A stretch of DNA of 62,426 bases, counting the filler. It is 6 parts of 6 records of this genome, joined end to end, with 100 filler letters (N's around TTAATTAATTAA, not from the genome) between each part and the next. Parts side by side here need not be neighbours in the genome. Positions count along the whole stretch, not along the records: positions 38,619 to 58,818 come from SRR20825010_7187; 5 more parts are not named here. One strand, 5' to 3'. This document shows, one piece after another, positions 11,586 through 58,818 of this stretch (positions are counted from its first letter, which is position 1; each line of letters opens with the position of its first letter). The notes beneath the pieces were generated by a model that was given only the letters and a program-made list of their open reading frames with translations, did not search any database and had not been told where the DNA came from. A program made the translations under genes and the position numbers.

Positions 11586-12241
11586 CACGTCTTCCACCAT
11601 GGACTGCTGCCGGTGTCCAAAATCGTGCGAAGCTTTTTCAAACCGCGTTTGAGCAATCCGGCGACCGCGGTTTCGCTCTTGTCCGTTCGGTCGACGATCT
11701 CTTTCAACGACAAGCCTTCCATGTAACGCAAACGAATCGCCTCAGCTTGCGTTTCTGGAAGTTCATGCAGTGCTTGCATCATCGCGCTGACGGCCTCTTG
11801 TCGAACCGCGACGCCGCTCGGGCTGGTTTTGGCTCCGGGCATCTGTGCGATCCAGTTGTCCGGCTGACTGCCATCGCCACCGGCCCCTCCGGCATGCACT
11901 TCTTTCTTGGTCGAACGTTTTTGAGTCATCACGTGATGAGCGACCGCTGATGCAACATTGTTTTTCAGCATGCCACGCAACCAGCCCGCGAACTCACCCG
12001 CCGATTCACCTCGAAAAGCATGCAGGTCACGTTTGGCTTCCAAAAACGTGACTTGCACCAAATCCGCAGGATCGATTCGCCGGCGAAGTTGATCGCTGAG
12101 ATACCGATGGGCCAGCATCAACAGATACCCTCGATAGCGCAGCATCAGTCGACCCAACGCTTCGTTGTCGCCTCCTTTGGAAGCGATCACCAAAGCGGTT
12201 GTGGTGTCTGATGATGTCGAATTGGAAGGCGATCGGTTCAA
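11585..12241 (-). CDS. ECF sigma-70 factor (planctomycete kinase-associated type)
   Basis: Region 2 ALGRLMLRYRGYL...DPADLVQVTF...FAGWLRG and region 4 LHELPETQAEAIRLRYMEGLSLKEI...AVAGLLKRGLKKLR. Start is approximate. Confidence 0.93.
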   Translation of the reverse strand: MNRSPSNSTSSDTTTALVIASKGGDNEALGRLMLRYRGYLLMLAHRYLSDQLRRRIDPADLVQVTFLEAKRDLHAFRGESAGEFAGWLRGMLKNNVASAVAHHVMTQKRSTKKEVHAGGAGGDGSQPDNWIAQMPGAKTSPSGVAVRQEAVSAMMQALHELPETQAEAIRLRYMEGLSLKEIVDRTDKSETAVAGLLKRGLKKLRTILDTGSSPWWKT

Positions 12242-14134: not shown

Positions 14135-15437
14135 CACCATGTGCCTGACCGAACCGCATTGCGGCACCGACCTGGGCATGTTGCGCAGCAAGGCTGAGCC
14201 ACAAGCAGATGGCAGCTACAAAATTACCGGTGCGAAAATTTTCATCAGCAGTGGTGAACACGACATGGCCGAGAACATCATTCACCTGGTGTTGGCACGT
14301 CTTCCCGATGCACCCCAAGGTACCAAAGGCATTTCATTGTTTCTGGTTCCCAAATTCATTCCGAATGCAGACGGAACACTTGGCGAGCGCAACCCCATAT
14401 TCTGTGGCGCCATTGAACACAAAATGGGCATTCACGGCAACGCCACCTGCCAGATGAACCTGGACGGTGCAAGCGGCTGGTTGATCGGTCAGCCCCACCG
14501 CGGCTTGGCCGCCATGTTCGTGATGATGAACGCAGCCCGCCTGGGTGTGGGCATGCAGTCATTGGGCCTGACTGAAGTGGCATATCAAAACGCCGTGGTG
14601 TACGCGAAAGATCGTATTCAAGGCCGTTCACTGACTGGCCCCAAAGCCAGCGATAAACCCGCAGATCCCATCATCGTTCATCCCGATGTGCGCAAAATGT
14701 TGCTGACCACCCGTGCTTATGCCGAAGGTGGCCGCGCACTGTGTTTCTGGACTGCGCTTGAACTGGACAAAGAATTGAATCACCCCGATGAAGCCGTCCG
14801 CAAGGAAGCTTCCGAGATGGTTGCCCTGGCCACACCGATCGTAAAAGCGTTCATCACCGACAACGCTTGGGAAGCAACATCCCATTGCATGCAGGTGTAC
14901 GGCGGCCATGGTTACATTGCCGAGTGGGGCATGGAGCAGTATGTTCGCGACAGCCGCATCAACATGATTTACGAAGGCACCAACACCATTCAATCGCTCG
15001 ACCTGTTGGGTCGCAAAGTGTTGGGCGACGGTGGTGCCAAGTTGATGAAATTTGGAAAAATGGTGCGCGCATTGTGCGAAGAGCAGGCCAACAACCCCGC
15101 CATGAAAGAGTTCGTTGAACCCCTGGCTGATCTGGGCGACAAGGTCAGCAAGCTGACCATGGAAATTGGTGGCAAAGCCATGCAAAACCCGGATGAAGTA
15201 GGTGCGGCAGCTGTCGATTATTTGCGTGTGGTTGGCCACTTGTTCTACGGCTACTTCTTTGCCCAGGCTGCAAAAATTGCACTGGAAAAGCAAGCCAGTG
15301 GCGACAAGTTCTACACCGCTAAATTGCACACAGCCCGTTTCTATTTCCAGAAAATGCTGCCTGAAACCGCCATGTTGATTCGCAAGGCGCGCGCCGGTTC
15401 AGCCAGTTTGATGGAAATGGAAGCAGACCTGTTTTAA
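14135..15437 (+). CDS. Acyl-CoA dehydrogenase (5'-truncated)
   Basis: TMCLTEPHCGTDLG, GAKIFISSG, GTKGISLF, EHKMGIHG, MNAARLG, YGGHGY and IYEGTN, plus the C-terminal extension. Confidence 0.96.
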
Positions 15438-17344
15438 GCGACCCGTTGTTGGTTTGTCAGCATTGATTCTGTGATGGATATCAACTGGTCAAGATAGTCA
15501 AAGTGAGGCGTAAGCGTGTCAAGCCAGTTTGAGGCATGCCCCAAATAGGCTTGACAGTTTCGCTGATCGAAATGGGGATGAAACCTTTCCGCCTGTATTG
15601 CTCGAATCATCTCAGCAATTGGCAGATGGTTTTCCACGTAAGGCTTTATGTACAACACATGCGGTTGAATCGCGATGTTTTGAGAAATATAGTCCAGAAC
15701 CATGTCGGTCTGGTTAATGTTTACCCAGGCAATGCTGTGGGGTATGTGGTTCTCAAGCAGTATTTGCCGGAAGGCTTCTTGCCTGGAATAAGCGTCAAAC
15801 ATTTTCGTGCGTGATGTGTTCAGTTTCTGAATTGCCACTCGAAGCTGACTGTCCAATGTCGCGGGCTTTGGCGTTGTCTTTATGGCCACAATTTGCGTGG
15901 TCGCGTCGTTGTTTGGGCTATTGTGTGGTTCTGGTTGAGGGCTCTTTTTTGGGCTTTGCTGCGGACTGGGCGGTGGACTGTTGTGTGCCATGGCCTCGGC
16001 AATTAATTGCTCAAGCTGATTTAACCTGTGTTCAACGTCTTTTTTGTACTGTTGTACTTCTGCTTTTCCTGTTGGCCACCTGTCGGCGTCGATTCGACTG
16101 TCAATTTCTTGAAGCTCGCCCGCGAAGACGTCTCCCATTTTGCGTTTTTCATCTGATGTTGAAATTGCCAGTTTTTTTACATCATGACGCAGCCAGTCTG
16201 CCAGCTTGGAAAGTTCAGCATTGAATTTGGTCGCGAGCGGCTTTTCGGCAATGTGTGTACTTTGACGGCGACTTGGCCCGCTTGTAACTGCGGGTTTCGT
16301 TTCTTTTTCAGCGACAGGATTTCCCGTTTCCTGCGGTTTTTTGCTGATGGTTGTTTCAGCTGGTGCTTCCGTCTGCTCTGCTTCGATCAATTCGTCTGCC
16401 AGTGAATTGATGTCTTCAAGCTGGATGTTTTGAAGATAAGAAATCACTTCTTCAGACAGTGTGTCGTGGTCGGCTTGAATCAATTGCAATTGCAGTAGCC
16501 CAGGCTGTGTGACGCTTTCTGTCTGGTGTCGCTTCGCAAGGGCCAACACAATATCCGAATTGCTGAGATCGCCCACTGTGAGTTGTTGGCCCAGTTTCTG
16601 AAGTTTTTGATTTGCTGAGTCAAATACGTTCATGATGGGAAGATTGTTGATCGTTTGCATCTTGAAAGATTCAAACACGGTCTTGTTGTCTTCCGTCAGC
16701 TTGTCGACCATGGATGAAAATTCAAGCAGTTTGATTCTTTCAGGGCCGTCGCTCACTCCGCTAAGGTACATCTCAACATTTGATTTCAGGCAGTCAAGAA
16801 AAATGTTGAGCCGACTGGATTCGGTTGAAATCAGGCTGGTTTGGCACAGTGTTGTTTGATAAATTGTAAGTGCCTGAAACAATTTTCCAAGTTCATTTTG
16901 TTTGGCTAAGGGGATTACTTCCAAAACCCGCTCCATCGCGCCATTGAGTCTTTGGGTGATTTGAACAATGTTTTCTTGCAGCAGATCAATTGTTTTAATA
17001 TAAGTTGAATTCTGACTTTTTCCAGCGCTTGTTTGGTGTGGGCTCTCTACCGACATCATTGCATTTAACGACTGTTGCATCTGTTTTTTGATCAGCGGCA
17101 ATTGTTGAACCAAGTGTTTGTTGACGGCTGTGCTGATTTCGTTAAGTTGCTTGCTCAGTTCCTTGGCTTTGTTTTTTTTGATTGGTGATTGAGGTCGCAC
17201 GATTTCTTGCGTTAACAACGTGCCCAAGGCTGAACATCTGGAGCAGAGCCCGGAAATTTGTACCTCGCCAATGTTTAGTTGTGATTTGTTTAGTTCATGA
17301 AGCAGTGCGTAGGCATTGGTTGAACTTGTAATGGGTTGCGGCAT
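15434..17344 (-). CDS. Orphan 636-aa helical/coiled-coil protein, candidate secreted (type III-like) effector
   Basis: Long ORF, visibly more AT-rich than its neighbours, with an S/T/N/P-rich N-terminus, no signal peptide, Q/L-rich helices and a Pro/Ser linker (SPPPSPQQSPKKSPQPEP). Confidence 0.75.
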   Translation of the reverse strand: MPQPITSSTNAYALLHELNKSQLNIGEVQISGLCSRCSALGTLLTQEIVRPQSPIKKNKAKELSKQLNEISTAVNKHLVQQLPLIKKQMQQSLNAMMSVESPHQTSAGKSQNSTYIKTIDLLQENIVQITQRLNGAMERVLEVIPLAKQNELGKLFQALTIYQTTLCQTSLISTESSRLNIFLDCLKSNVEMYLSGVSDGPERIKLLEFSSMVDKLTEDNKTVFESFKMQTINNLPIMNVFDSANQKLQKLGQQLTVGDLSNSDIVLALAKRHQTESVTQPGLLQLQLIQADHDTLSEEVISYLQNIQLEDINSLADELIEAEQTEAPAETTISKKPQETGNPVAEKETKPAVTSGPSRRQSTHIAEKPLATKFNAELSKLADWLRHDVKKLAISTSDEKRKMGDVFAGELQEIDSRIDADRWPTGKAEVQQYKKDVEHRLNQLEQLIAEAMAHNSPPPSPQQSPKKSPQPEPHNSPNNDATTQIVAIKTTPKPATLDSQLRVAIQKLNTSRTKMFDAYSRQEAFRQILLENHIPHSIAWVNINQTDMVLDYISQNIAIQPHVLYIKPYVENHLPIAEMIRAIQAERFHPHFDQRNCQAYLGHASNWLDTLTPHFDYLDQLISITESMLTNQQRVA

Positions 17345-43902: not shown

Positions 43903-44988
43903 TCAGTTGGGAGCGTTTTGCGGACGCTTGTCCGCATCCCAATTCTCGATGGTGATCTGCGACTGGATAGCTGGCTCCATCAGGCCGGTCGCCATCGGGC
44001 ACTTCACGCCGGGGAGCGTGAAGACATCGAACAATTCACGGATTTCACCTTCAAAGCGCATCCACTGCACGACGTCGCCAGTGCGTGTATCGATGATCTG
44101 CACGCCGCACCAAGGTTCGGCATCGCGTTTTGCCATGGCATCATCCAGTTCCAGTCCGGAGAAGCTGCCATCACGTGGCAGTGACAGACCGACAAAGGCA
44201 AAATGTCCGTGGAACGAAAGACCGCGCATAAAGCCGGGCAGGAAAGCCACAACCTCAAGTGAGCCGTCGTTCTCGTTCACGGTGCAAAGATTGCCGCGTC
44301 CGGAATCAAGCACCCACAGCTTGCCGTTGTGAACGCGCGGCGAATGCGGCATGGACAGGTTCTGCGTCACGAATTCGTTGGAGGCGACATCCATGATAGA
44401 GCCGCCACTGGCGCGGCGATCGCGCCAGCCCGTCACCACGTCGCTCTTGCACACTGCAGTCACATATTTGGCTTCACCTTCATGCATCGCCAGTCCGTTG
44501 AGGTGGCAGCGATCTTCCGGCGCAAGTCTTGAGATGAAATGCGGTTTCCAGATCGGCTTGAAACTATGTGTGGCACTGGGAACGGCGAGGCAGGAATATT
44601 TGGTATTCACAAAGATGACTTGACCGGACTTGTCGATCCCCAATTCATGCACATCCAGATCGCCTGTTGTTTGCGCCGTACGCGGCACATAGTTTCGATC
44701 AAATCCATCGACAGATTGATCGGGTCCTAGAATGTTTTCCATCCGCCAGATCTGGAAGTGGTTGGCAAGATAGAGGCGCTGCGGCGAGGCCGCCACACCC
44801 ATGGCGCGCACGAAATGTCTTTCATGAAAACTTACCGAGCCATTGCTCTTGTGACCTACTAGGTAGAGCCGTCCCGACTGATAAGACGTCAGACCGAAGC
44901 TGATATTATGTTGGGCCATCCATCCTGCCAGGCCACGCGAGCAAGTGATTTTTGTTTTGACGGTCGAGGAAGTAGCTGGCTGGGACAT
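43903..44988 (-). CDS. TIGR03032/DUF4915 family protein
   Basis: TSYQSG, YVPR..TGDLDVHE, VNTKYSCL, WKPHFISRLAPEDRCHLNGLA, LSMPHSPR and PGFMRGL. Confidence 0.9.
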   Translation of the reverse strand: MSQPATSSTVKTKITCSRGLAGWMAQHNISFGLTSYQSGRLYLVGHKSNGSVSFHERHFVRAMGVAASPQRLYLANHFQIWRMENILGPDQSVDGFDRNYVPRTAQTTGDLDVHELGIDKSGQVIFVNTKYSCLAVPSATHSFKPIWKPHFISRLAPEDRCHLNGLAMHEGEAKYVTAVCKSDVVTGWRDRRASGGSIMDVASNEFVTQNLSMPHSPRVHNGKLWVLDSGRGNLCTVNENDGSLEVVAFLPGFMRGLSFHGHFAFVGLSLPRDGSFSGLELDDAMAKRDAEPWCGVQIIDTRTGDVVQWMRFEGEIRELFDVFTLPGVKCPMATGLMEPAIQSQITIENWDADKRPQNAPN

Positions 44989-45133: not shown

Positions 45134-46000
45134 ATGCATTTATTGCTGGTCAGTCTGCTGGGGTTGCAACTGGCTGCCTGTGTGGGCGTTCCCGAACTCG
45201 CCAAGCGTAAATCCGATGCGATGAATGTAGCACCTGCCGGATTTCATGCAGAAAATCTTGAAACGCGCGAATTCAAGCTTTTCGCTCTTCTCCCTGAGAA
45301 TATGCGTGTGTTGGATGACGGTATTCTCACGGTTTTGATCGAGGGTGATGGTTTCGCCTATATACGTCGCGACCGTGCCTCCGCGGATCCCACGCCGCTT
45401 TCACAGACAGTCATCGAGCTTTTGCCTCGTGATGGTAGACAGAATGTGGCTTATCTGGCGCGTCCATGTCAGTTCACCGGCGCGACCACGCCAGCTTGCG
45501 ATGTTTCTGTCTGGACATTGGAGCGCTACTCCGAACGGGTGATTGACACGATGGACGAAGCCGTGACGCTATTGAAGGCATCGGCTCATGCTAGTCAACT
45601 TCGGCTCATCGGTTATTCAGGTGGCGGTGTTGTTGCGGCCTTGTTGGCAGCTCGACGCGTTGATGTGGTATCGCTTGTCACTATTGCATCCCCGCTCGAT
45701 ACGGATGCATTTGTTGCTGTCCATTCGGTCTCTCCGATGAATGGTTCGCTCAATCCGCGGGATTTCGCGCAGGCACTTTCCAGTGTGCCGCAGATTCATT
45801 TTGTAGGAGAACAGGACAAGGTTGTGCCGAGACAGATTCTTGAAAGCTTTTTCGCATCTTTGCCAAACAAGGCTTGCGCCGAAATTGTCACTGTGTCGGG
45901 CGCGAGCCATAGCAGTGGATGGTCGAAGATTTTTCCCGCGCCTGTCGATCAGTTGCCGGTTTGCCACTCAGACAGTGTTTCGAAAGTTGTCGCGCCATGA
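45134..46000 (+). CDS. Alpha/beta-hydrolase lipoprotein
   Basis: Lipobox LAAC, IEGDG, DPTP, YLARPCQF, GYSGG nucleophile elbow, D-KVV and terminal His. Start is approximate. Confidence 0.85.
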   Translation: MHLLLVSLLGLQLAACVGVPELAKRKSDAMNVAPAGFHAENLETREFKLFALLPENMRVLDDGILTVLIEGDGFAYIRRDRASADPTPLSQTVIELLPRDGRQNVAYLARPCQFTGATTPACDVSVWTLERYSERVIDTMDEAVTLLKASAHASQLRLIGYSGGGVVAALLAARRVDVVSLVTIASPLDTDAFVAVHSVSPMNGSLNPRDFAQALSSVPQIHFVGEQDKVVPRQILESFFASLPNKACAEIVTVSGASHSSGWSKIFPAPVDQLPVCHSDSVSKVVAP

Positions 46001-46668
46001 ACGCTTCAATTAAGATTGCCCTGATCGACGACCACCACATGTTTCTGGATGGCTTGAGCGAAGTCATCAGAAGCTTGGACAAACGATATCGGTGCACCGG
46101 CTTCGCGTCGCCGCGTGAGGCCATCAGCCAGATCGAGGCGGGCACAAGTTTTGATCTCATTCTTTGCGATCTCGTGATGGAAGAGATGAATGGTGTCGCC
46201 TTCCTGCAAGCCATAAAGGCGCGCAATCTAACAACGCCCGTGCTCATTGTATCCGGCATCGACACTATGCCACCTGTCGAAACCGTTCTTAATCTTGGAG
46301 CGCGGGGCTTTGTCAGCAAATCAGCTCCGTCACTTTCCCTGCGCAAGGCGATTGAAACGGTCTTGGCAGGAGATATTTTTTTATCCGAGGAAATGTGGAG
46401 TCTCGTCAATTCAAACCCGCGCACCCTGCAGCACAGCAATGCAGTGTCATCCGACACAGCCGCTAACATTGATCATGTGATTGGTGGACGGCAGTTAGAG
46501 GTTCTCAATCTTATAGCCGAAGGCTATTCCAACAAGCGTATCTCCGATGTTCTGAATATTTCCGAGAACACCGTTAAAACACATATCCAGAATGTTTTCC
46601 GCCAACTCAATGTGACGCGCCGCACGGCCTGTGTCAGCAAGGCCCGGAGTCTTGGCCTCATTAGCTGA
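45997..46668 (+). CDS. NarL/FixJ family response regulator (REC + LuxR HTH)
   Basis: LIDDH, LCDLVM, GFVSK and EVLNLIAEGYSNKRI..ISENTVKTH. ATGA overlap with the hydrolase. Confidence 0.95.
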   Translation: MNASIKIALIDDHHMFLDGLSEVIRSLDKRYRCTGFASPREAISQIEAGTSFDLILCDLVMEEMNGVAFLQAIKARNLTTPVLIVSGIDTMPPVETVLNLGARGFVSKSAPSLSLRKAIETVLAGDIFLSEEMWSLVNSNPRTLQHSNAVSSDTAANIDHVIGGRQLEVLNLIAEGYSNKRISDVLNISENTVKTHIQNVFRQLNVTRRTACVSKARSLGLIS

Positions 46669-46682
46669 AGTGCTGCGCAGCT

Positions 46683-48482
46683 TCATCCAAAAACAATGGG
46701 TGCTGTCGATTGTGTTTCAGCTCGAACTGTCGCAATACGCCGCAAAATGCGATGCAGCCGTTCAGGCTCAACGGGTTTGTGCATGACCGATAGATTGATC
46801 GCGCCACCTTCCAAATCGTCGCCAGCAATGTCGCCGGTCATGATGATGGCCGGTATAGTCTCATTGATTTCGTCTCGGACCTTCTCGATGACATCTAGTC
46901 CGTTTTCACTATCGCCCAGTCTATGATCCACGAGCAGGACATGCGGTGTGGCGCCCGTCTGAGCTAGCACTTCCAGTGCATCGCTCGATGAGCGTGCTGA
47001 ATAGACTTGGCATCCCCAACTTGTCAGAACAGTTGTCATGCCGGCGCGGATTGCATCCTCGTTATCGACCAGCAATATGCATAGATTGCCGATGGTGGAA
47101 GTGAACGGGGCATAGGTATCTTGCGTGTGCTGCAGAAGGTGAGCGTCCTCCCGCAATGCCTCTAGCGTCAGTGTGGCGCAAGTGCCTTCCCCGACTCGGG
47201 ATGTCAAATCTAGTTTCAATCCAAGCAGTTTGACCAATCGGCGCACAATCGAGAGGCCAAGACCCAGACCCTTTTCTCGATTTCGCTCGGGATTGCCAAG
47301 CTGCACATATTCCTCGAAAACAAAATTGAGTTTGTTAGATGGAATGCCGCAACCGTTATCCTCAACTGCCACAACGATATTTTGCTCCACCCGCGAAACG
47401 CTTACCGTGACGGTTCCGCCACGTGCGGTGAATTTGACCGCGTTCGATATCAGATTGCGCAGAATCCGGGTGAGGATCAGCGGGTCCGTGCGCGCAGGCG
47501 CCTCCGGCGTTACAATTTCCAGCATGACACCGCGTCCGGCGGCGATAGCTGCAAATTCATCGCAGACGCGGCGCGCCAATGTGCCCACATCAATCGGGCG
47601 CATGTCCGGTACAATCACACCGGCATCAAGCCGCGATACATCAACCAGCCCGTCAAGAAGGTGGCCGAGCCCGCGCCAGCTCGCTTCCACTTTGGCCAGC
47701 AGCGCCAGTTGGTCAGGTCTCTTTGTGCGCTCGCGCAGTGCTGTCAGATAAAAGCCCTGAGCGTGCAACGGTTGGGCAAGGTCATGGCTGGTCGCGGCCA
47801 GAAAACGTGTCTTTTCTTCATTAGCCTTTTGCAAAGCGTTGCGTTGGCGGCTCAACTCTTCGATCAGAATGGCATTTTGTTGGATTGCCAATACGTCGCG
47901 CGTACCGATTTCCACCCGTGCGCTTGCCGACATGAAAAAAGCATAGGCCAGAAAGATCCCGATACCTGTGCCACTGAGTGGCCATGGCGCCATGACGAGA
48001 ACCCATGTGGCATAGGGCAGTAAAACGAAAGTCGCCAGGCCAACATAGGAGCGACGATAAGCCGATTGGGGTGCAATGCCGCCCAAAGAAATGCTCAGTA
48101 CCAAAACACCTGTCAGGAACAGGCTGGTCTCCGAATGCGCATCGGTTAGCAATGCCGCACCAATACCCCAAACCGCACCTGTGACACAAGAGATGGCAGT
48201 GTGCCAACCCAGATAGACATCCATGTTTTCCAGTGTCACGCCGCTGTGCCGGAAAAGATAAGGCAGCAGCAGTGTCGTCAGAATGGCCAGTGATGCCACC
48301 CCGAACCATAGTATGATTGGCAACAGCGGGTTTAGAAAAGCCAGAATGACGCAATAGCAAGTCAACAGACAAAAAACCGAAACCGCCGAACTACTTGCCC
48401 GTTCAAACAAAAGTCGCGCTTGGCCAAGTTCCAGCATATCCGGTTCTAGTTTGTGTGCGCCGATATCAATTTCCGAATTCAT
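46683..48482 (-). CDS. Membrane hybrid sensor histidine kinase (TM-HisKA-HATPase-REC)
   Basis: About six TM segments, FLAATSHDLAQP, NLISNAVKFT, DNGCGI, GLGLGL and a C-terminal receiver domain. Confidence 0.95.
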   Translation of the reverse strand: MNSEIDIGAHKLEPDMLELGQARLLFERASSSAVSVFCLLTCYCVILAFLNPLLPIILWFGVASLAILTTLLLPYLFRHSGVTLENMDVYLGWHTAISCVTGAVWGIGAALLTDAHSETSLFLTGVLVLSISLGGIAPQSAYRRSYVGLATFVLLPYATWVLVMAPWPLSGTGIGIFLAYAFFMSASARVEIGTRDVLAIQQNAILIEELSRQRNALQKANEEKTRFLAATSHDLAQPLHAQGFYLTALRERTKRPDQLALLAKVEASWRGLGHLLDGLVDVSRLDAGVIVPDMRPIDVGTLARRVCDEFAAIAAGRGVMLEIVTPEAPARTDPLILTRILRNLISNAVKFTARGGTVTVSVSRVEQNIVVAVEDNGCGIPSNKLNFVFEEYVQLGNPERNREKGLGLGLSIVRRLVKLLGLKLDLTSRVGEGTCATLTLEALREDAHLLQHTQDTYAPFTSTIGNLCILLVDNEDAIRAGMTTVLTSWGCQVYSARSSSDALEVLAQTGATPHVLLVDHRLGDSENGLDVIEKVRDEINETIPAIIMTGDIAGDDLEGGAINLSVMHKPVEPERLHRILRRIATVRAETQSTAPIVFG

Positions 48483-48736
48483 CCTACTCCCCTTAGCCGT
48501 TCCCGTTCCTGGCTCGGCATGTCTGAACTCTAGCAGATTATGGAGTTTCGTCGCTGATAACACTGTTAGTGAATGCTTTGCCGCTATGATTTTTTCATCT
48601 GGGCGCTGAAATTGTCTTGGCATAGTGCAAATGCGTCATGCCGGTATTCCTCACAGTTTCTAGTTTGTGAATCGCAGAGGGTGCGGGGGCAATCACTTGT
48701 CTTCTAACCCGTTGAATTCAAAGACTGGGGCTGAGT

Positions 48737-50080
48737 ATGAAGATGAGTTTGGTTCGGCTGGGGGGCAGCCTTCTTGCATTAGGTTTTGCGATGTCAATTG
48801 CGGGGCTCAGCGCGCGCGCCGGCTCTCTGGAAGATGCAATGCAGGCCCTGAACGCCCGTAATCCCGAGCAAGCCTATGCAATCCTGAAGCCCGAAGAACG
48901 CACTCGTGCAGGCAATCCCGAATTTGACTACGCATTGGGATTAGCTGCCGTCGACAGCGGCCGCGGTTCTGAGGCTGTCAGTGCTTTCGAACGTGTTCTG
49001 GCCGTGCAGCCAGACCATTTGCAAGCCCGTGCCGAGCTTGGCCGCGCCTATCTTGCCATCAACGAGCCGGAAGCCGCGCGGCGCGAAATGGCTAGCGTCG
49101 AAGCATCAAGCCATGTGCCTGACGATGTGCGCGAGACGCTCAACCTCTATGTGGCCGCTCTCGATACAGGCTTATCTGGCGGCGGCACCAACATCCGCAG
49201 CAATGTCACCATCAAGGCGGGCTATGACACCAACGTCAATAATTCCACCAATGACAGCCGTATTCTCATTCCCGCCTTTGCCGGACTGGGCTTTGCCACA
49301 CTAGCCGGTGGCGCAACTGCTGAAGAAGACGCATTTGCCGAAACATCCGGTCGCGTCACGCTCACACATGGGCTGTCCATTGATCGCAAGCTCATCGCCG
49401 AACTTAATGCCAGCTATCGTGGCAACTTGCATGAAGAGCAGTTCAATCAGGCAACTGCCGGATTGAATATCGGCTTGTCGCAAGCCACTCCCGATCACGG
49501 CACGTTCACAGTCTTGGCGCAGGCCCAGTCCTACTGGGTAGATGGCAAGCCCTATCGTTATAGCCTCGGCGGTATCGGTCAGTGGTCCATGAGCACAAAA
49601 TCGCACACCGATTACGGCGTCTATCTACAATATGCCTTCCAGAATTATCCCAATGCCAGCTTTCAGGACACAAACCGTGTGACGCTCGGCGCAACAATCG
49701 GTCAGGCATTTTCTGCCCCCTTCAAGCCATATGTCTTTGCCGGTGTCTATGGCGGCATCGAGAAGGCAACGCACAATAATGCCAGCAATCTTTCCTATGA
49801 CTTTGTGGGAGCTCGCGTCGGAGCGGAGCTTCAGATCACAGACCGCCTCGCAGCGTATGCGACCGCTGCGGTCGAGAATGACGAATACAAAGGTATCGAG
49901 CCGCTCTTCCTGAAAAATCGTTCGACGGTTCGAACCGATCTGTCAGGGGGTGCCCGCTTTGCGCTTACCCCGTCGATCAAGCTCAATCCAGAAGTCACCT
50001 ACACAAATGCCGACAGCAACATTCCGCTCAACAAGTATGACCGGTTTGTCGGCTCCCTCGCTCTCAGCATTGATTTTTAA
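48737..50080 (+). CDS. TPR + DUF560 outer-membrane beta-barrel (Slam / type XI secretion translocon)
   Basis: Signal peptide, TPR helices (AGNPEFDYALG..AFERVLA..RAELGRAY), GYDTNVN barrel start, amphipathic strands, SNIPLNKYDR and terminal F. Confidence 0.85.
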   Translation: MKMSLVRLGGSLLALGFAMSIAGLSARAGSLEDAMQALNARNPEQAYAILKPEERTRAGNPEFDYALGLAAVDSGRGSEAVSAFERVLAVQPDHLQARAELGRAYLAINEPEAARREMASVEASSHVPDDVRETLNLYVAALDTGLSGGGTNIRSNVTIKAGYDTNVNNSTNDSRILIPAFAGLGFATLAGGATAEEDAFAETSGRVTLTHGLSIDRKLIAELNASYRGNLHEEQFNQATAGLNIGLSQATPDHGTFTVLAQAQSYWVDGKPYRYSLGGIGQWSMSTKSHTDYGVYLQYAFQNYPNASFQDTNRVTLGATIGQAFSAPFKPYVFAGVYGGIEKATHNNASNLSYDFVGARVGAELQITDRLAAYATAAVENDEYKGIEPLFLKNRSTVRTDLSGGARFALTPSIKLNPEVTYTNADSNIPLNKYDRFVGSLALSIDF

Positions 50081-50106
50081 GTCCCGACTTACGTGAGGAT
50101 CACATC

Positions 50107-53100
50107 ATGACAAATTGTTTCAAGACCCGCACGCGTCTGGCAACAGCTCTTGCCACTGTTTCCCTGCTGGCACTCTCCACCGCACCCGCCCTGTCCATGC
50201 CCGTTCTCTTCGGCGCTAACAATATTTCGGTCGAAGGCGGAGGCAGCACTTCAGACATTGCCGAAGGTTCGACCGTCACGGTCACAGGTGCGTTGCTGCA
50301 AATGCAACTGGCCGACGGCAGCACTATCACTGTGCCCAAAGGATCTTCTTTCCGCATCGTTGGAGAAGGTGACGACGTGACCATTGAGGTCATTTCGGGC
50401 AGCGTGCGTGTTGATAGTAAAGGCACACCCATCACCATCTCGCATAACGGCTCCAGTATTACGACTACAGGCGGAGCCTTCTCCGCCTTTGCCTCTGCAT
50501 CAGGTGGCCTTGACGGCCGTGTCAACAGCGGCACAGCCAAGGTCAATGCCGGCGGCGAGGTGCAGGAATTTGCAAAAGGTGAGGGCTATCTCGCATCTGC
50601 GGACGGTGTTTCGGGCACATTCACACCGCCTGTCCCCGGTACCACGCAAGTGGCATCCAATAACAAGACTGACTTTTCGACAGCCGACCAGCGCGATGCA
50701 GATGGCAATTCGGTAGTGGCTGAAGAGGCTCTGGGCGGCAGCAGCAGTGGTGGCTATGGCGGCATACCACCTGTCACCGGTGTCATCGTGCCGGTCACAG
50801 GCGATGAACACACCGGCTATTCTATTGTCTATTCCGCTGACAGCGTTGGCATTGACCAACGTGCCGACGTTACGGTCACGGTCGGCGCAAATGGTGAGCT
50901 CAATCGCTACAAAGTCGGTGACGGTTCCAGTGAGGACCTTGAGCGCAATTCCAATGACAGTCTTGAACGTGGCAATGCCAACGGCGAGATTTTCATCGAG
51001 CGTTGGGCCGGTGGCGAAACCAATGGCAATTACTACAACGATTACAACGGCACCACTTTCTCCAGCCTTGGTCGGACGTCCTATCAGGGCTACCACCTTG
51101 CTTATGGCGAGGTCGGCACAAATATTCCGATTTCCGGCACCGCGCTTTACTCGCTTGCTGCCGCCACCAATCCCACATTCGACAAAGGTCAAACTGCGCC
51201 TGGCACATTCACCGGCACGCTTGGCATAGCCTTTGGCCCCACCTTTAAGGTAGGCGTCGATTTCACCGCCACTATGGCAGGCGACCGCGCTTACAACATT
51301 CTGACACCTGGCGGTTCTGCCAATCCGTCTGCTGTAGCCAGCGTGGGTATTATTGCGGATGGCATTTTTACGGTAACCAACATTCCCGTGGCTCAAGGTG
51401 GCATTTCCTGCCCGACCGCGAATTGCTTTGCGGTAGTGGATGGTGTGATAGGTGGTGATGCGGCCAGTTCCATCGGCATTGCATGGCAGATTTTGGATTT
51501 CGGTTCGGAAGTGGACGAGTTCTACCGTGGCGTGCGCCTTTCGGGTGCGGCGGCCTTCACTCAGGATTCCTATAGTGCCGGAGGTGGCGGTGGTAGTGGT
51601 GGCGGTGAAGAAGCCGCCATCGATAGCGGTTCGCTTGATGCACCGTTCCGCACCCCTTCAAGTGGCACCTATTTTGGTAATTCGCTTTACGCCCCCATCT
51701 TGTCCTTCCAGCGCGAAGCCACAATCACTCATGACCTTGTGTTCGACGAGCGAGGTGCTTTTATCGGCTTCCGCGGAACCAGCAATGGTTCGGGCACGTA
51801 CCGTCTCAATGATGGTGTCATCGCCGATCTTGCAGGCACTGCCTATATGCAGATCGGTCGCTGGAATGGCGGTACCATCCTCAAGAATGGTGAAACCTAC
51901 TTCACAGTTGGCGGTTGGCAGGGCGTGCCATATCTTCTCGGTGCGCCGATCAATAATTCTTATCTGCCTACATCGGGCACGGCCACATATGCACTGAGTG
52001 CCGCCACAGCACCGATCTTTGCGTCAGGTGCCTTCGCGCCGGGCGTATTCGATGGCAGCGCAGCCATTCTCTTCGGGGCCAGTGGCGGCAACCAGTGGAA
52101 GCTTGGTCTTGATGCCACTGTTACCATGCAGGAAACCAGCGGCGAGGTTGTCTACAACATTGCGACTCCGGGCGGCATTGTCGATCCGTCGCAAAGTCCG
52201 ATCAGCGGTGCCATTGCTTTCTATACAATCGACAGCCCCGTAGGCAGTTCCATTTGCCCCAGCACCACCTGTCAGGTTGATATTCGTTCAGCCATGGTCG
52301 GTGGTCCATCGGGCCGCGATGCGGGCATCAATTATGTGATCTATCAGGGTAGCAGTGATGCCATCATGGGCAGTGCCTTGTTCCAGGTTATTGGCAATGA
52401 TGTTCTCTATGATCAGGACATTGGCATGCTGGTACGGGCCATTTCGCCTAATAACAGCATCGTCACCGGCAGCCTTGGTGCCTATGGCGGACAGGATCAA
52501 ACAATTACCCATGAAGATGGTGGCGGCCTTTCGCAATTCGGTGCGCCGGGCAATTCCCAGAATTACCGTAGTGGCACCACCATTGTATCGGGCGGCACCA
52601 GCCAGGGCATGTCATGGTCGCGCTGGTCCAACGGTACAGCGGAAAGCGATTATCTGGCCGATAACCAGATCGTCTTGGGGGCTAATCAGTCCATCCATGC
52701 TGTAGCGGGTGCGCAGGCCAGCTCCATTCCAACCACTGGTACAGCGCAATACACGCTAGCTGGTGCGACGGCGCCCACCATCTCGGATGGTTCCGTGGCC
52801 CCGGGTACATTCTCCGGCACACTCGGTGTTGCTTTCGGCAGCTATGGTGATGCGCGTGTCGGCGTTGACTTCGATGTCGCTATTGGTGGCTTTACCTACA
52901 ATATTCTGTCCACGGGCGGATCGGCCACACCGGGCACCAGCGAAATCCTTCTCAACGGTGCTTCCTTCTCCAACTCACATGTGCCGGTTGCGATGGCAGG
53001 TGGTCCGGCTTGCACGGGCATGACGTGTGAAGCAACCGTCTCTGGTTTCCTCACAGGCAGTGGTGCGACAGGTGCTGCATTGTCCTATGCAATCTCAAGC

Positions 53101-53166
53101 AACGGTTCACCCAATCTTGAAAACACAGTGCAAGGCGTCGCAGCCTTCACCACTGCTGTCCCATGA
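50107..53166 (+). CDS. Secreted 1019-aa protein: FecR-like N-domain plus three TbpB/HphA-like handle-barrel repeats (putative T11SS cargo)
   Basis: Sec signal, FecR-like MQLADGSTITV..SSFRI..SGSVRV, then three copies of RW.GG...P.SGTA.Y.L.AAT.P...APG.F.G...FG...C-x4-C...G.A.F. Confidence 0.82.
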   Translation: MTNCFKTRTRLATALATVSLLALSTAPALSMPVLFGANNISVEGGGSTSDIAEGSTVTVTGALLQMQLADGSTITVPKGSSFRIVGEGDDVTIEVISGSVRVDSKGTPITISHNGSSITTTGGAFSAFASASGGLDGRVNSGTAKVNAGGEVQEFAKGEGYLASADGVSGTFTPPVPGTTQVASNNKTDFSTADQRDADGNSVVAEEALGGSSSGGYGGIPPVTGVIVPVTGDEHTGYSIVYSADSVGIDQRADVTVTVGANGELNRYKVGDGSSEDLERNSNDSLERGNANGEIFIERWAGGETNGNYYNDYNGTTFSSLGRTSYQGYHLAYGEVGTNIPISGTALYSLAAATNPTFDKGQTAPGTFTGTLGIAFGPTFKVGVDFTATMAGDRAYNILTPGGSANPSAVASVGIIADGIFTVTNIPVAQGGISCPTANCFAVVDGVIGGDAASSIGIAWQILDFGSEVDEFYRGVRLSGAAAFTQDSYSAGGGGGSGGGEEAAIDSGSLDAPFRTPSSGTYFGNSLYAPILSFQREATITHDLVFDERGAFIGFRGTSNGSGTYRLNDGVIADLAGTAYMQIGRWNGGTILKNGETYFTVGGWQGVPYLLGAPINNSYLPTSGTATYALSAATAPIFASGAFAPGVFDGSAAILFGASGGNQWKLGLDATVTMQETSGEVVYNIATPGGIVDPSQSPISGAIAFYTIDSPVGSSICPSTTCQVDIRSAMVGGPSGRDAGINYVIYQGSSDAIMGSALFQVIGNDVLYDQDIGMLVRAISPNNSIVTGSLGAYGGQDQTITHEDGGGLSQFGAPGNSQNYRSGTTIVSGGTSQGMSWSRWSNGTAESDYLADNQIVLGANQSIHAVAGAQASSIPTTGTAQYTLAGATAPTISDGSVAPGTFSGTLGVAFGSYGDARVGVDFDVAIGGFTYNILSTGGSATPGTSEILLNGASFSNSHVPVAMAGGPACTGMTCEATVSGFLTGSGATGAALSYAISSNGSPNLENTVQGVAAFTTAVP

Positions 53167-53231: not shown

Positions 53232-53269
53232 CCCCATATCCGCCACTAAGCCCTCAGGCGGATATGGGG
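53232..53269. terminator. Strong stem-loop after the cargo gene
   Basis: CCCCATATCCGCC-12 nt-GGCGGATATGGGG, a 13-bp perfect stem. The U-tract is weak. Confidence 0.6.
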
Positions 53270-53363
53270 GTTCAATTATGGAGATGTTTAAGCGACGGTC
53301 TTCTCATAGCCGCACGTAACCCTATAATGCGCCTTGGTTTGGGTTTTGGGTTGCAAGTTGTAT

Positions 53364-55124
53364 ATGTCTGGTTCTGGTGAAGTCCTTTCTGTTGTTCTGG
53401 ACGCGGTATATGCATGCGCGGCTGATCCGGACCGTTGGGAAGATCTGATCGACGTCTATGCTTCGCTCGAACCTCATTTCAGCGACGGAGAAGATGGTCT
53501 GTCCGATGGCGGTGCGATGGCGGAAACTCTTCAGCCGCATCTCGACCGTGCCGGAGATGTCGCGCGCCGTGTGCTTCAAGCATCCGCCGTTCCAGAATCC
53601 GGCATGCAGACACAGACCACGCCGCCGCCCGTTGTTTATGTCCTGATCGGACGCGACCAACGCATTATTTCTACTTCGCCGTCGGTTCCTGCATTGCTTT
53701 CATCATTTTGTGCGCCTCTTGATCAGGGGCGTCTTTTTTCGATGGAAGATGCCGATAATCAGAAGCGCTATCGCGACGCCCGTGACGCCTTGAAAACAGG
53801 TGACGGCACCATGCCGGTTCTGTTCAGTTTCGATGACGGCACAGCAACACAATCTGTTTCCGGCTTTCTGGTGGACGCACCACACGCCAGCCGGTTGCTT
53901 GGTCTGGATAGTTCCGAACCGCTGCATGCCGAGTCCCATGCTTTGATCTTGCCGGATCGCACAGCTCTTGTGCGGCACGACCATCTTTTGCGAGCCAGTC
54001 TCGGGCTTACACCAGCGGAGTTGCGTCTTGCCAATCTGCTAAAGGATGGCTTGTCGCTTGCGGAAGCCGCGCCGCAGCTTGGCATCGCTGTCAATACGGC
54101 GCGAAACCAGCTCCGCGCCATTTTCACAAAACTGGGGGTTAACCGGCAAAGCGAAATGGTGCGCCATCTTGCAGAGCTTGGTCAGCTTGCTGCCTTTGTC
54201 CGTGGTCCCGACAATTTGCCGGACACCTTGCCCGCGTCGCAGGTCGGCAAGAATGGGGATAGTATCGAGACAACCCGCCGGTTTGTTACTTTGCCCGACG
54301 GGCGCAAACTTGCTTACCGTGAATATGGTGCCGAAGCCGGCATGCCGGTTTTCTTTTTGCACGCGGTTCTCTCGGGTTCGCTTTTAAGAGATGACGAAGC
54401 ACAAATGGCCCTTCGCCACGGTTTACGGCTCATTGTGATCGAGCGCCCCGGCACTGGCTGGTCAACATTTGATCCGGATATGAGTTTTGAGACTGTGGCC
54501 AAGGATTTGGAATTCTTGGCCGACGCGCTTGAATTGAAACAGGTTCTCGTCTCGGGCCGTTCGTCGGGCGCGCGTTTTGCCATTGCGGTTGCGAGACGCA
54601 TGGGTTCCCGCGTGCCGCGTCTTTTGCTTTGGGCTCCGCGCTTCAATGTCGATCCCGAACTCGATCGTCGTGATCTGCTCGGTCGTTTCTACGCCGGCAT
54701 GCGTCGTGTACCTTGGTATGCCCGGGCAGCCTTGTCGCTCTTGCGTGCCAAACTCTCGCGCCCTTTCTTGCGCGAAATGCTCATGCGCAGTCACGAACGT
54801 TCCCCTGCCGACCACGCCCTTATGGTCAACGACCCCGGATTGCTGGATTTCATGGTGCGGCAATCATTCGAGGCTCTGGAAATCACACATGAAGGCGTGG
54901 TGGGCGAGGCGCGTCTGCTCGACACCGATCAGCCGCTGGATCTGGACGGACTGGAGGCGGAACTGGTCATCTGGCACGGCCGCGAAGACGGATATGTCAA
55001 CAGCCGCGAGATAGAGCGCCGTGTGAGCAACCTTCCTTATGCAGAGTTTCGCCTGCTCGACAACGAAGGGCACATCTTCTCTCTGGACGCGCGCGAGAAA
55101 GTCTTCAAGCGTTTAAGGGATTAG
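53364..55124 (+). CDS. LuxR-HTH / alpha-beta hydrolase fusion regulator
   Basis: Central LTPAELRLA..GLSLAEAA..NTARNQLRAIFTKLG..RQSE, then LPDGRKLAYREYG, ERPGTG, GRSSG, WHGRED and EGH. Confidence 0.9.
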   Translation: MSGSGEVLSVVLDAVYACAADPDRWEDLIDVYASLEPHFSDGEDGLSDGGAMAETLQPHLDRAGDVARRVLQASAVPESGMQTQTTPPPVVYVLIGRDQRIISTSPSVPALLSSFCAPLDQGRLFSMEDADNQKRYRDARDALKTGDGTMPVLFSFDDGTATQSVSGFLVDAPHASRLLGLDSSEPLHAESHALILPDRTALVRHDHLLRASLGLTPAELRLANLLKDGLSLAEAAPQLGIAVNTARNQLRAIFTKLGVNRQSEMVRHLAELGQLAAFVRGPDNLPDTLPASQVGKNGDSIETTRRFVTLPDGRKLAYREYGAEAGMPVFFLHAVLSGSLLRDDEAQMALRHGLRLIVIERPGTGWSTFDPDMSFETVAKDLEFLADALELKQVLVSGRSSGARFAIAVARRMGSRVPRLLLWAPRFNVDPELDRRDLLGRFYAGMRRVPWYARAALSLLRAKLSRPFLREMLMRSHERSPADHALMVNDPGLLDFMVRQSFEALEITHEGVVGEARLLDTDQPLDLDGLEAELVIWHGREDGYVNSREIERRVSNLPYAEFRLLDNEGHIFSLDAREKVFKRLRD

Positions 55125-57713: not shown

Positions 57714-57813
57714 AATTTCTATTTACGTTCAAGAAGGGGCTGGTTCGGGATCATCCGGCGAGACTCGTGATAAAAGCCGGAGCAATGGGGGTAGCCGTAA
57801 AGACGCGGATCCT

Positions 57814-58359
57814 CTTCATTTCAGGGCACCTCAGGCCGAGGATGGCCCCGCTGTAACGGCGTTGATCTCCGCTTGTCCCCCGCTCGACACCAATTCGGCC
57901 TATTGCAATCTCCTGCAATGCAGCCATTTCGCCGACACATGCGTACTTGTCGAGCGCGAAACGGCGCAAGGGCGTCAGGCGGTCGGCTGGATTTCCGGCC
58001 ATCGTCCTCCGTCCGACCCGGATGTCTTTTTTGTCTGGCAGGTCGCTGTCCATGAAAGCGCGCGAGGCCTGGGCCTTGGCCGCCGCATGATTGCGCATCT
58101 GCTGGCCCGTTCTTCGGCCAAGGGGGCCACCAAGCTTCATACGACCATCACAGAGGACAATGACGCCTCTTGGGGTCTGTTTGTTTCTTTTGCGCGCCGC
58201 ATTGGCGCTGACCTTCACAAAGCGCCCTTTTTTGAGCGCGAAGCCCATTTCGGCGGGGCGCATGACACCGAATTTCTGGTCACGATTTCCCCACTTCCTG
58301 ACCAGTCGGCAGAAACGCGAACCGCTCATATCAATCCGGCTGCAACGGCAGCCAAATAG
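57814..58359 (+). CDS. ectA: Diaminobutyrate acetyltransferase (start codon unresolved)
   Basis: LHFRAPQAEDG..LISACPPLDTNSAYCNLL, FVWQVAV, RGLGLG, TTITEDNDASW and HFGGAHDTE. Homology begins 16 codons before the first canonical start (TTG 57862). Confidence 0.93.
   Translation, partial: LHFRAPQAEDGPAVTALISACPPLDTNSAYCNLLQCSHFADTCVLVERETAQGRQAVGWISGHRPPSDPDVFFVWQVAVHESARGLGLGRRMIAHLLARSSAKGATKLHTTITEDNDASWGLFVSFARRIGADLHKAPFFEREAHFGGAHDTEFLVTISPLPDQSAETRTAHINPAATAAK

Positions 58360-58818
<459 letters not shown>

Follow-up and report, generated by a model that had tools for sequence, protein, structure and literature searches.

Among the closest described systems, Slam1 and Slam2 of Neisseria are DUF560/SlipAM proteins that combine a TPR domain with a 14-strand barrel and are encoded next to their partners, and the cluster 1 cargo of the type 11 secretion system (T11SS), which includes TbpB, LbpB, fHbp and HpuA, is built from lobes that each consist of a handle and an 8-strand barrel. 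The hemophilin-type cargo (Hpl, HphA/HsmA and HrpC/HrpB) also has a handle and a barrel, carries a Sec-type signal and is not lipidated. According to the main text of Grossman et al. (2025, Microb Genom, PMC12282271), known T11SS cargo is limited to animal-associated members, most environmental T11SS clusters have no predicted cargo, and the published cargo hunts depend on sequence similarity to TbpB-type barrels. Here we describe a two-gene locus of a Parvibaculum-like marine bacterium, located at positions 48737-53166 of a 62,426-nucleotide (nt) stretch of DNA (the window; all coordinates are window positions on the 5′ to 3′ strand shown). The first gene encodes an outer-membrane barrel protein of the Slam family and the second a non-lipidated protein of 1019 amino acids (aa), referred to as the cargo, with a FecR-like head and three lobes. 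We estimate, with a probability of roughly three in four, that the locus constitutes a self-contained two-gene Slam/type 11 secretion module that delivers the three TbpB-like lobes to the cell surface or beyond it.

Both open reading frames (ORFs) described in the initial annotation were present on the + strand, which carries all the features of the locus given below. The first extends from 48737 to 50080 (447 aa) and the second from 50107 to 53166 (1019 aa), and the 26-nt spacer between them (50081-50106) contains a Shine-Dalgarno GAGGA at 50095-50099, 7 nt ahead of the ATG of the cargo gene. Membership of the first product in the Slam family was sustained by Pfam, since the SlipAM/DUF560 model (PF04575) matched aa 157-436 with 25.1 bits against a cut-off of 22 and spanned model positions 5-277 of 288. 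In addition, TPR_19 (36 bits) and TPR_16 (34.2 bits) scored above their cut-offs, and BBP2_2 matched the C-terminal quarter of the protein. We then obtained an AlphaFold2 (AF2) model, built from 62 sequences and with a mean local confidence (pLDDT) of 89.4, which presented a signal helix, seven TPR-type helices (residues 30-39, 43-57, 61-73, 77-90, 95-107, 111-122 and 129-146) and 14 long strands at aa 151-446, the number that a Slam barrel had been expected to have. The predicted periplasmic TPR domain (aa 30-146) corresponds to positions 48824-49174 and the barrel (aa 151-446) to 49187-50074. VIA-align related residues ~28-147 to TPR domains with Z 15-17, and a PDB profile search returned TPR proteins only. 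The best solved matches to the barrel were CymA (Z 21.9, root-mean-square deviation (rmsd) 3.4, 277 residues aligned) and OmpG (Z 19.9, rmsd 3.2, 238 aligned; Foldseek TM-score up to 0.69), both of which we take to be 14-stranded. The protein had 277 homologues; PF04575 was found on most of the 120 listed, and some sources label these homologues as DUF560 or surface lipoprotein assembly modifier.

The cargo, delimited by translation, had 60 homologues, Plav_1899 of Parvibaculum lavamentivorans among them, and was composed of 15.6% Gly, 11.1% Ala, 10.7% Ser and 9.6% Thr. Its Sec-type signal peptide (aa 1-30, 50107-50196), judged by inspection of the sequence and not by a predictor, showed a K/R n-region, a hydrophobic core and the end ALS↓MP, while in the homologues the signal peptide ended in AXA followed by a conserved xPVLFG. 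The protein has no lipobox because the sole early Cys (C4) precedes the hydrophobic core. The head (aa 31-180, 50197-50646) is followed by a low-complexity Gly/Ser-rich linker (aa 181-225, 50647-50781), by lobe 1 (aa 226-490, 50782-51576), by a Gly-rich linker (aa 491-505, 51577-51621), by lobe 2 (aa 506-775, 51622-52431) and by lobe 3 (aa 776-1019, 52432-53163). The RW anchors of the three repeats were found exactly at the claimed nucleotides 51001, 51859 and 52621 (aa 299, 585 and 839), the first of them within the handle of lobe 1, and the Cys pairs at residues 435/440 (CPTANC, in the barrel of lobe 1), 717/722 (CPSTTC, in lobe 2) and 969/974 (CTGMTC, in lobe 3). Gly-rich stretches at ~aa 210-219 and 491-502 precede repeats 1 and 2 only, with none before repeat 3, as the initial annotation had it. 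The motifs attributed to each repeat were likewise in place, except that repeat 3 reads PTTGTA instead of P.SGTA. Searches of NCBIfam gave no meaningful match for either the cargo or the barrel protein.

The homology of the three repeats was confirmed by BLASTP far beyond chance, with E 1.2e-20 and 37% identity over 176 aa between repeats 1 and 2, E 1.2e-27 and 34% over 236 aa between repeats 1 and 3, and E 6.6e-17 and 31% over 218 aa between repeats 2 and 3. In order to assign a fold to the lobes, lobe 3 was modelled with AF2 using 52 homologues. The model (pLDDT 94.3, predicted TM-score (pTM) 0.91) was all-beta and contained the expected handle, of about seven strands (residues ~1-95 of the lobe), and an 8-strand barrel (~100-244) that ends in a terminal GVAAF strand. 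Foldseek comparison with the PDB gave 76 matches at E<=1e-3, led by fHbp, Acinetobacter baumannii hemophilin, the TbpB C-lobe and the NHBA C-domain (E ~1e-5). An independent fold scan against 48,161 representative chains placed Slam-type cargo in all of the first 17 rows (Z 9.5-13.4), and 12 of these covered essentially the entire lobe, starting at residue 1. Specifically, the TbpB C-lobe aligned 185 residues over positions 1-244 with Z 13.4 and rmsd 3.7, followed by the surface lipoprotein 3hoe (Z 13.1), the NHBA C-domain (12.9), the LbpB N-lobe (12.8), HpuA (11.9), fHbp (11.7) and the hemophilins (6om5, 11.4; 8gm3, 11.3; 7re4, 11.0). Since lobes 1 and 2 are homologous to the modelled lobe 3, the same fold was given to them. 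Each lobe is thus predicted to be a handle plus an 8-strand soluble barrel of the TbpB/fHbp/hemophilin fold, by modelling in the case of lobe 3 and by homology in the other two.

The head of the cargo matched Pfam FecR (PF04773) at aa 58-139 with 21 bits, under the gathering cut-off of 24, and 14 of 16 orthologues matched this family at E<=0.01. A more sensitive comparison with hhalign, in which a profile of 13 heads of the cargo family was aligned to a profile of 16 canonical FecR heads taken from 25 genes located downstream of Slam-like genes, gave a probability of 96.7% and E 4.5e-10 over 131 columns. The TTTGGAF that had been reported in place of the usual RGT was located at aa 119-125 and aligned to LGVRGT in the consensus of the canonical heads, with GGA occupying the place of RGT. 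An ESM Atlas look-up of the head yielded weak leads (0.90-0.92), one of them a cluster named FecR. These comparisons support that the head is a divergent FecR domain, homologous to that of the FecR/PupR-type anti-sigma regulators. Unlike these regulators, the cargo has neither a cytoplasmic anti-sigma part nor a transmembrane helix, only the 30-aa cleavable signal peptide, and unlike FecR cell-surface signalling loci, the locus has neither a sigma factor gene nor a TonB transducer gene nearby. Among the 16 orthologues, the head (mean pairwise identity 0.65) and lobe 1 (0.62) were more conserved than lobe 2 (0.43) and lobe 3 (0.44, with 0.52 in its barrel and 0.33 in its handle).

Further conservation analyses addressed the linkage between both genes. 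A pattern scan with one genome per species, based on the 16-row alignment, retrieved 19 loci, mostly from Parvibaculum and otherwise from metagenome-assembled genomes labelled Hyphomicrobiales, Rhodobiaceae, Euryhalocaulis, Hoeflea or Alphaproteobacteria, which agreed with the alphaproteobacterial source proposed in the initial annotation. In all 19, a Slam homologue was located directly upstream of the cargo gene on the same strand, while the other neighbours varied. In each of three genomes checked, SlipAM matched once and the lobe profile exactly three times, always within the adjacent ORF. Among 61 genomes of the family, 15 carried the lobes, 14 the Slam profile and 46 neither of them. In all 14 Slam-positive genomes the two shared a contig and the lobes came immediately after the Slam gene, and in the 15th lobe-bearing genome the cargo was located at the start of a contig (Fisher p 6.7e-13 for the co-occurrence, uncorrected for kinship). 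When the class was sampled evenly, lobes were present in only 2 out of 301 genomes, namely the centre genome and G119. These results demonstrate that the Slam gene and the cargo gene are inherited as one unit, and it is very likely that the barrel protein and the 1019-aa protein act together.

To extend these analyses, representative proteins were searched with a profile of the three lobes. At E<=0.001 the lobe family comprised 761 representative clusters, of which 476 remained at 1e-10 and 144 at 1e-30; the proteins measured 197-2462 aa. Among the best 150 of the 761, the number of matched stretches was one in 19 proteins, two in 51, three in 58, four in 16, five in 4 and six in 2, counts that include fragments and come from high scores, which favour many lobes. 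In three of the cargo relatives (P0061, P0187 and P0188, 1758-2462 aa), a helical repeat of ~40 aa forms long arrays that precede the lobes or separate them, and it gives weak Phage_int_SAM_1 matches that we consider spurious. Similarly, a Pfam search of five long relatives returned only Phage_int_SAM_1 and DPC2 on the helical repeat regions, which were taken as spurious as well.

On the side of the Slam gene, the profile matched 38 out of 401 Pseudomonadota genomes (the unpublished G719 counted in). We examined 32 loci, corresponding to 33 of 43 match rows after leaving out the centre genome and the nine weakest rows, and lobes were detectable downstream of Slam in six of them. With G119 counted, there were 34 Slam-like ORFs, and 27 of these were followed, between -60 and +400 nt, by the start of an ORF on the same strand; no such ORF was found for the other seven, some of which are at contig ends. 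Once two small ORFs (135 and 169 aa) had been dropped, 25 downstream genes were scanned and Pfam FecR was found at E<=0.001 in 20 of them (best E 2.2e-15). In G119, the Slam gene is directly followed by a gene for a 499-aa protein composed of a canonical FecR domain and a single lobe; the FecR scores of the lobe-bearing relatives were 40.7 bits, in this protein, and 41.8 bits. Since FecR was present in 20 out of 25 downstream genes, some of them free of lobes, the head rather than the lobes is the constant partner of the Slam clade, and it marks the partners of the entire clade. A FecR-headed cargo, which the initial annotation had singled out as unusual, is therefore present as described, but such a head is the rule for this clade. 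Two further observations were made in these loci. In L035-L038, L040-L042 and L045-L050, the Slam-like genes are directly followed by genes for FecR proteins of 260-680 aa with long Pro-rich or Pro-Thr-Ser tails and no detectable lobe. In L025 (2799-6311, +), the Slam-like gene lies within an open frame of 1170-1286 aa, against the usual 440-500 aa, perhaps because the protein is extended at its N-terminus or because the frame runs on in GC-rich DNA.

How could such a module work? Sec would carry both proteins across the inner membrane, and the β-barrel assembly machinery (BAM) would insert the barrel protein into the outer membrane. The barrel protein would then handle the product of the neighbouring gene and translocate its lobes across the outer membrane, the C-terminal barrel serving as the address, as in known cargo. 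We consider it probable, somewhat less firmly than the module as a whole, that the lobes get to the cell surface. As it has no lipid anchor, the cargo could either be released, like the hemophilins, or be held at the cell through its FecR head. Export, the role of trivalent binder or adhesin suggested in the initial annotation and anchoring based on the head are all inferred. Most likely, the head carries the specific function or contact, because it is the constant partner of the Slam clade and, together with lobe 1, the best conserved part of the cargo.

Several results weigh against this interpretation. The barrel protein passed the SlipAM cut-off narrowly, three relatives scored 35.4, 27.5 and 20.1 bits, the last below the cut-off of 22, and the Slam-specific TPR model (PF24575, TPR_Slam) was not reached (22.2 bits against a cut-off of 35.2). 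No Slam structure was found in the PDB by sequence or by fold search. As for the lobes, lobe 3 alone was modelled and the folds of lobes 1 and 2 were assigned from homology. Pfam at E<=10 detected neither TbpB_B_D nor a related family in any of the three, so that of the sequence models proposed as a check, SlipAM was passed, FecR fell below its cut-off and TbpB_B_D went unmatched. TbpB_B_D was also absent, at E<=1, from seven Sphingomonad-type lobe relatives, including one from Sphingomonas antarctica, and PDB searches with profiles of 3 and of 16 lobes gave nothing or chance FepB matches (E 0.56 and 1.5). The neighbours in the related loci included no TonB-dependent receptor, although such a receptor usually, if not always, accompanies known cargo. 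Moreover, many FecR partners of the Slam clade end in Pro-rich tails with no detectable lobe. As these partners have no barrel, the barrel-address model cannot hold for them, and the function of the Slam clade may be something other than plain secretion. A complex prediction of the barrel protein with lobe 3 scored 0.00 in a run without controls, which gives no verdict either way.

One alternative is a threaded surface receptor. The lobes would be exported as in the secretion module, with the head retained in the periplasm on the TPR domain and the Gly/Ser linker running through the lumen of the barrel. This is possible, although we consider it unlikely; such a tethered binder, spanning the outer membrane, might also signal inward, and it departs from the preferred explanation solely in the fate of the head. 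It would fit the presence of FecR in most genes downstream of Slam, lobe-free proteins included, the higher conservation of the head and lobe 1 and the lack of a lipid anchor. FecR-type domains are, in addition, known to contact periplasmic domains of outer-membrane proteins, as FecR does with FecA. Extended to the entire clade, and with similar reservations, Slam would tentatively be seen not as a plain secretin but as the outer-membrane half of a widespread and undescribed envelope device, in which a FecR head docks on the TPR domain and variable C-terminal parts are threaded outward. These parts might be one to six TbpB-like lobes or Pro-rich tails, and the Parvibaculum form might be the trivalent one. 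On the other hand, a conserved signalling partner was lacking, as the adjacent histidine kinase and regulator recur in only 1 of 19 loci. CHASE2 genes did not provide one either. NsrA, in the part of PMC7529298 that describes it, is an outer-membrane receptor of ~1200 aa that works with CHASE2 cyclases. In this lineage, a CHASE2-cyclase link was rejected, given that the genes are 0.5-0.65 Mb distant in three genomes (G002, G003 and G317) and located on other contigs, at an indeterminable distance, in G001 and G119.

A less probable alternative, to which we give only a small chance, is that nothing is exported. The barrel protein would act as a receptor or channel and the FecR-lobe protein as its periplasmic partner, in a manner comparable to FecR-FecA, with the lobes as periplasmic binding modules. 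Partners free of barrels do occur in the Slam clade, and the main text of Grossman et al. (PMC12282271) considers a change of function possible in some environmental proteins of the T11SS family. However, the two-domain fold of the lobes has so far been seen in surface-exposed or secreted Slam cargo, which occupied the top 17 rows of the fold scan, and the barrel protein retains both the SlipAM signature and the 14 strands. Finally, it is very improbable that each lobe is embedded in the outer membrane as an 8-strand barrel like OmpA or OmpW, which BAM would insert with the terminal G.AAF as β-signal: the cargo does end in an aromatic-containing strand and membrane 8-strand barrels match lobe 3 at Z 8-9 (OmpW, OmpA, NspA and PagL at 8.1-8.7), but only over the barrel part, while soluble cargo lobes scored much higher (Z 11-13.4) with the handle also covered, Asp, Asn, Ser and Thr are present on both faces of the barrel strands, and we know of no precedent for a tandem of three membrane barrels each with a soluble handle.

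The secretion module can also be set against the described systems. Like Slam1 and Slam2, the barrel protein is encoded by a gene adjoining that of its partner, and like TbpB, LbpB, fHbp and HpuA, the cargo appears to be built from handle and barrel lobes. Unlike the Neisseria cargo, it has no lipobox, has three lobes versus one or two, carries a FecR head and has no TonB-dependent receptor nearby. Its lobes escape Pfam TbpB_B_D and its host is of a free-living marine type. The absence of an adjacent TonB receptor, already reported in the initial annotation, was verified among the flanking genes and among the window ORFs of at least 600 aa, and no link to iron, heme or TonB was found at the locus. 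The Sec-type signal, the lack of lipidation and the predicted handle and barrel resemble the hemophilins. In contrast, the hemophilins are described as proteins of ~250 aa with one lobe, linked to TonB receptors and to genes for heme uptake, and in their loci FecR is a separate neighbouring regulator gene and not a fused domain. The 'surface proteins' that Grossman et al. (PMC12282271) report from Sphingomonas and Psychrobacter, and predict to be T11SS cargo with two or three pairs of handle and barrel, are environmental and in some cases predicted to be soluble, like the cargo described here. They were found through similarity to TbpBBD and have N-termini with Pro-Thr or PTD repeats and no FecR head in that account. 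Because two to three handle-barrel pairs had already been published, three lobes are not new per se, and the unusual number of lobes claimed in the initial annotation holds for their presence but not for their novelty. A full-text literature search retrieved no paper that connects FecR, in the role of a cargo domain, to DUF560 or T11SS. In PMC12282271, the main text mentions neither FecR, Parvibaculum, tandem nor Alphaproteobacteria, although its supplementary tables could list relatives, and PMC8406197 makes no mention of FecR, Parvibaculum or Alphaproteobacteria. The FecR-headed, three-lobed partner architecture is thus not found in the published literature searched, while the system itself is of a known kind.

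The surroundings of the two genes were also inspected. A perfect 13-bp inverted repeat with a 12-nt loop (53232-53269, +; fold -27 kcal/mol) starts 66 nt past the stop of the cargo gene and could be a terminator without a T-run. It was not flagged by the consensus terminator scan, and the matches of the consensus promoter and terminator scans were no more numerous than in shuffled sequence. Directly after the cargo gene, 53334-55124 (+) encodes a 596-aa protein with a LuxR-type helix-turn-helix domain (GerE, weak) and a C-terminal alpha/beta hydrolase. This gene is kept downstream of the cargo in the two closest loci (L001 and L002), that is, in 2 of the 19. Divergent from the Slam gene, 46683-48623 (-) encodes a hybrid histidine kinase with a multi-pass N-terminus that is NahK/ErcS-like (306 bits, cut-off 400), and 45919-46668 (+) encodes a NarL/LuxR-type response regulator. 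The kinase, the regulator and the transporter neighbours recurred in a single locus out of 19, so that conserved regulation by the kinase/regulator pair was not supported. A few genes upstream there is a DUF4915 protein (43903-44988, -; 429 bits). Elsewhere in the window, Pfam searches with thresholds of E<=1e-5 and E<=1e-3 assigned no family to the ORFs at 15434-17344 (-, 636 aa) and 57751-58818 (-, 355 aa), and 9300-11600 (-) encodes a 766-aa protein in which a Ser/Thr protein kinase domain is fused with an NMT1-like periplasmic binding domain.

Altogether, these results provide a Slam-family protein of a free-living alphaproteobacterium with an obvious and strictly co-inherited partner, whose lobes show the cargo fold in the model and yet evade every sequence model tried. 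The lobe family is large, with one to six lobes in each protein, and the locus offers a concrete and testable cargo class for environmental T11SSs. Parvibaculum lavamentivorans DS-1, which carries homologues of both the cargo (Plav_1899) and the Slam gene, would be a simple experimental host. The locus raises the mechanistic question of how a three-lobed protein that carries no lipid and exceeds 1000 aa is handled and what the FecR head does. Partners of the Slam family that lack a barrel 'address' are, moreover, unexplained by the current T11SS model. If the envelope device considered above were true, it would represent a tethered, lipid-free surface receptor that spans the outer membrane.

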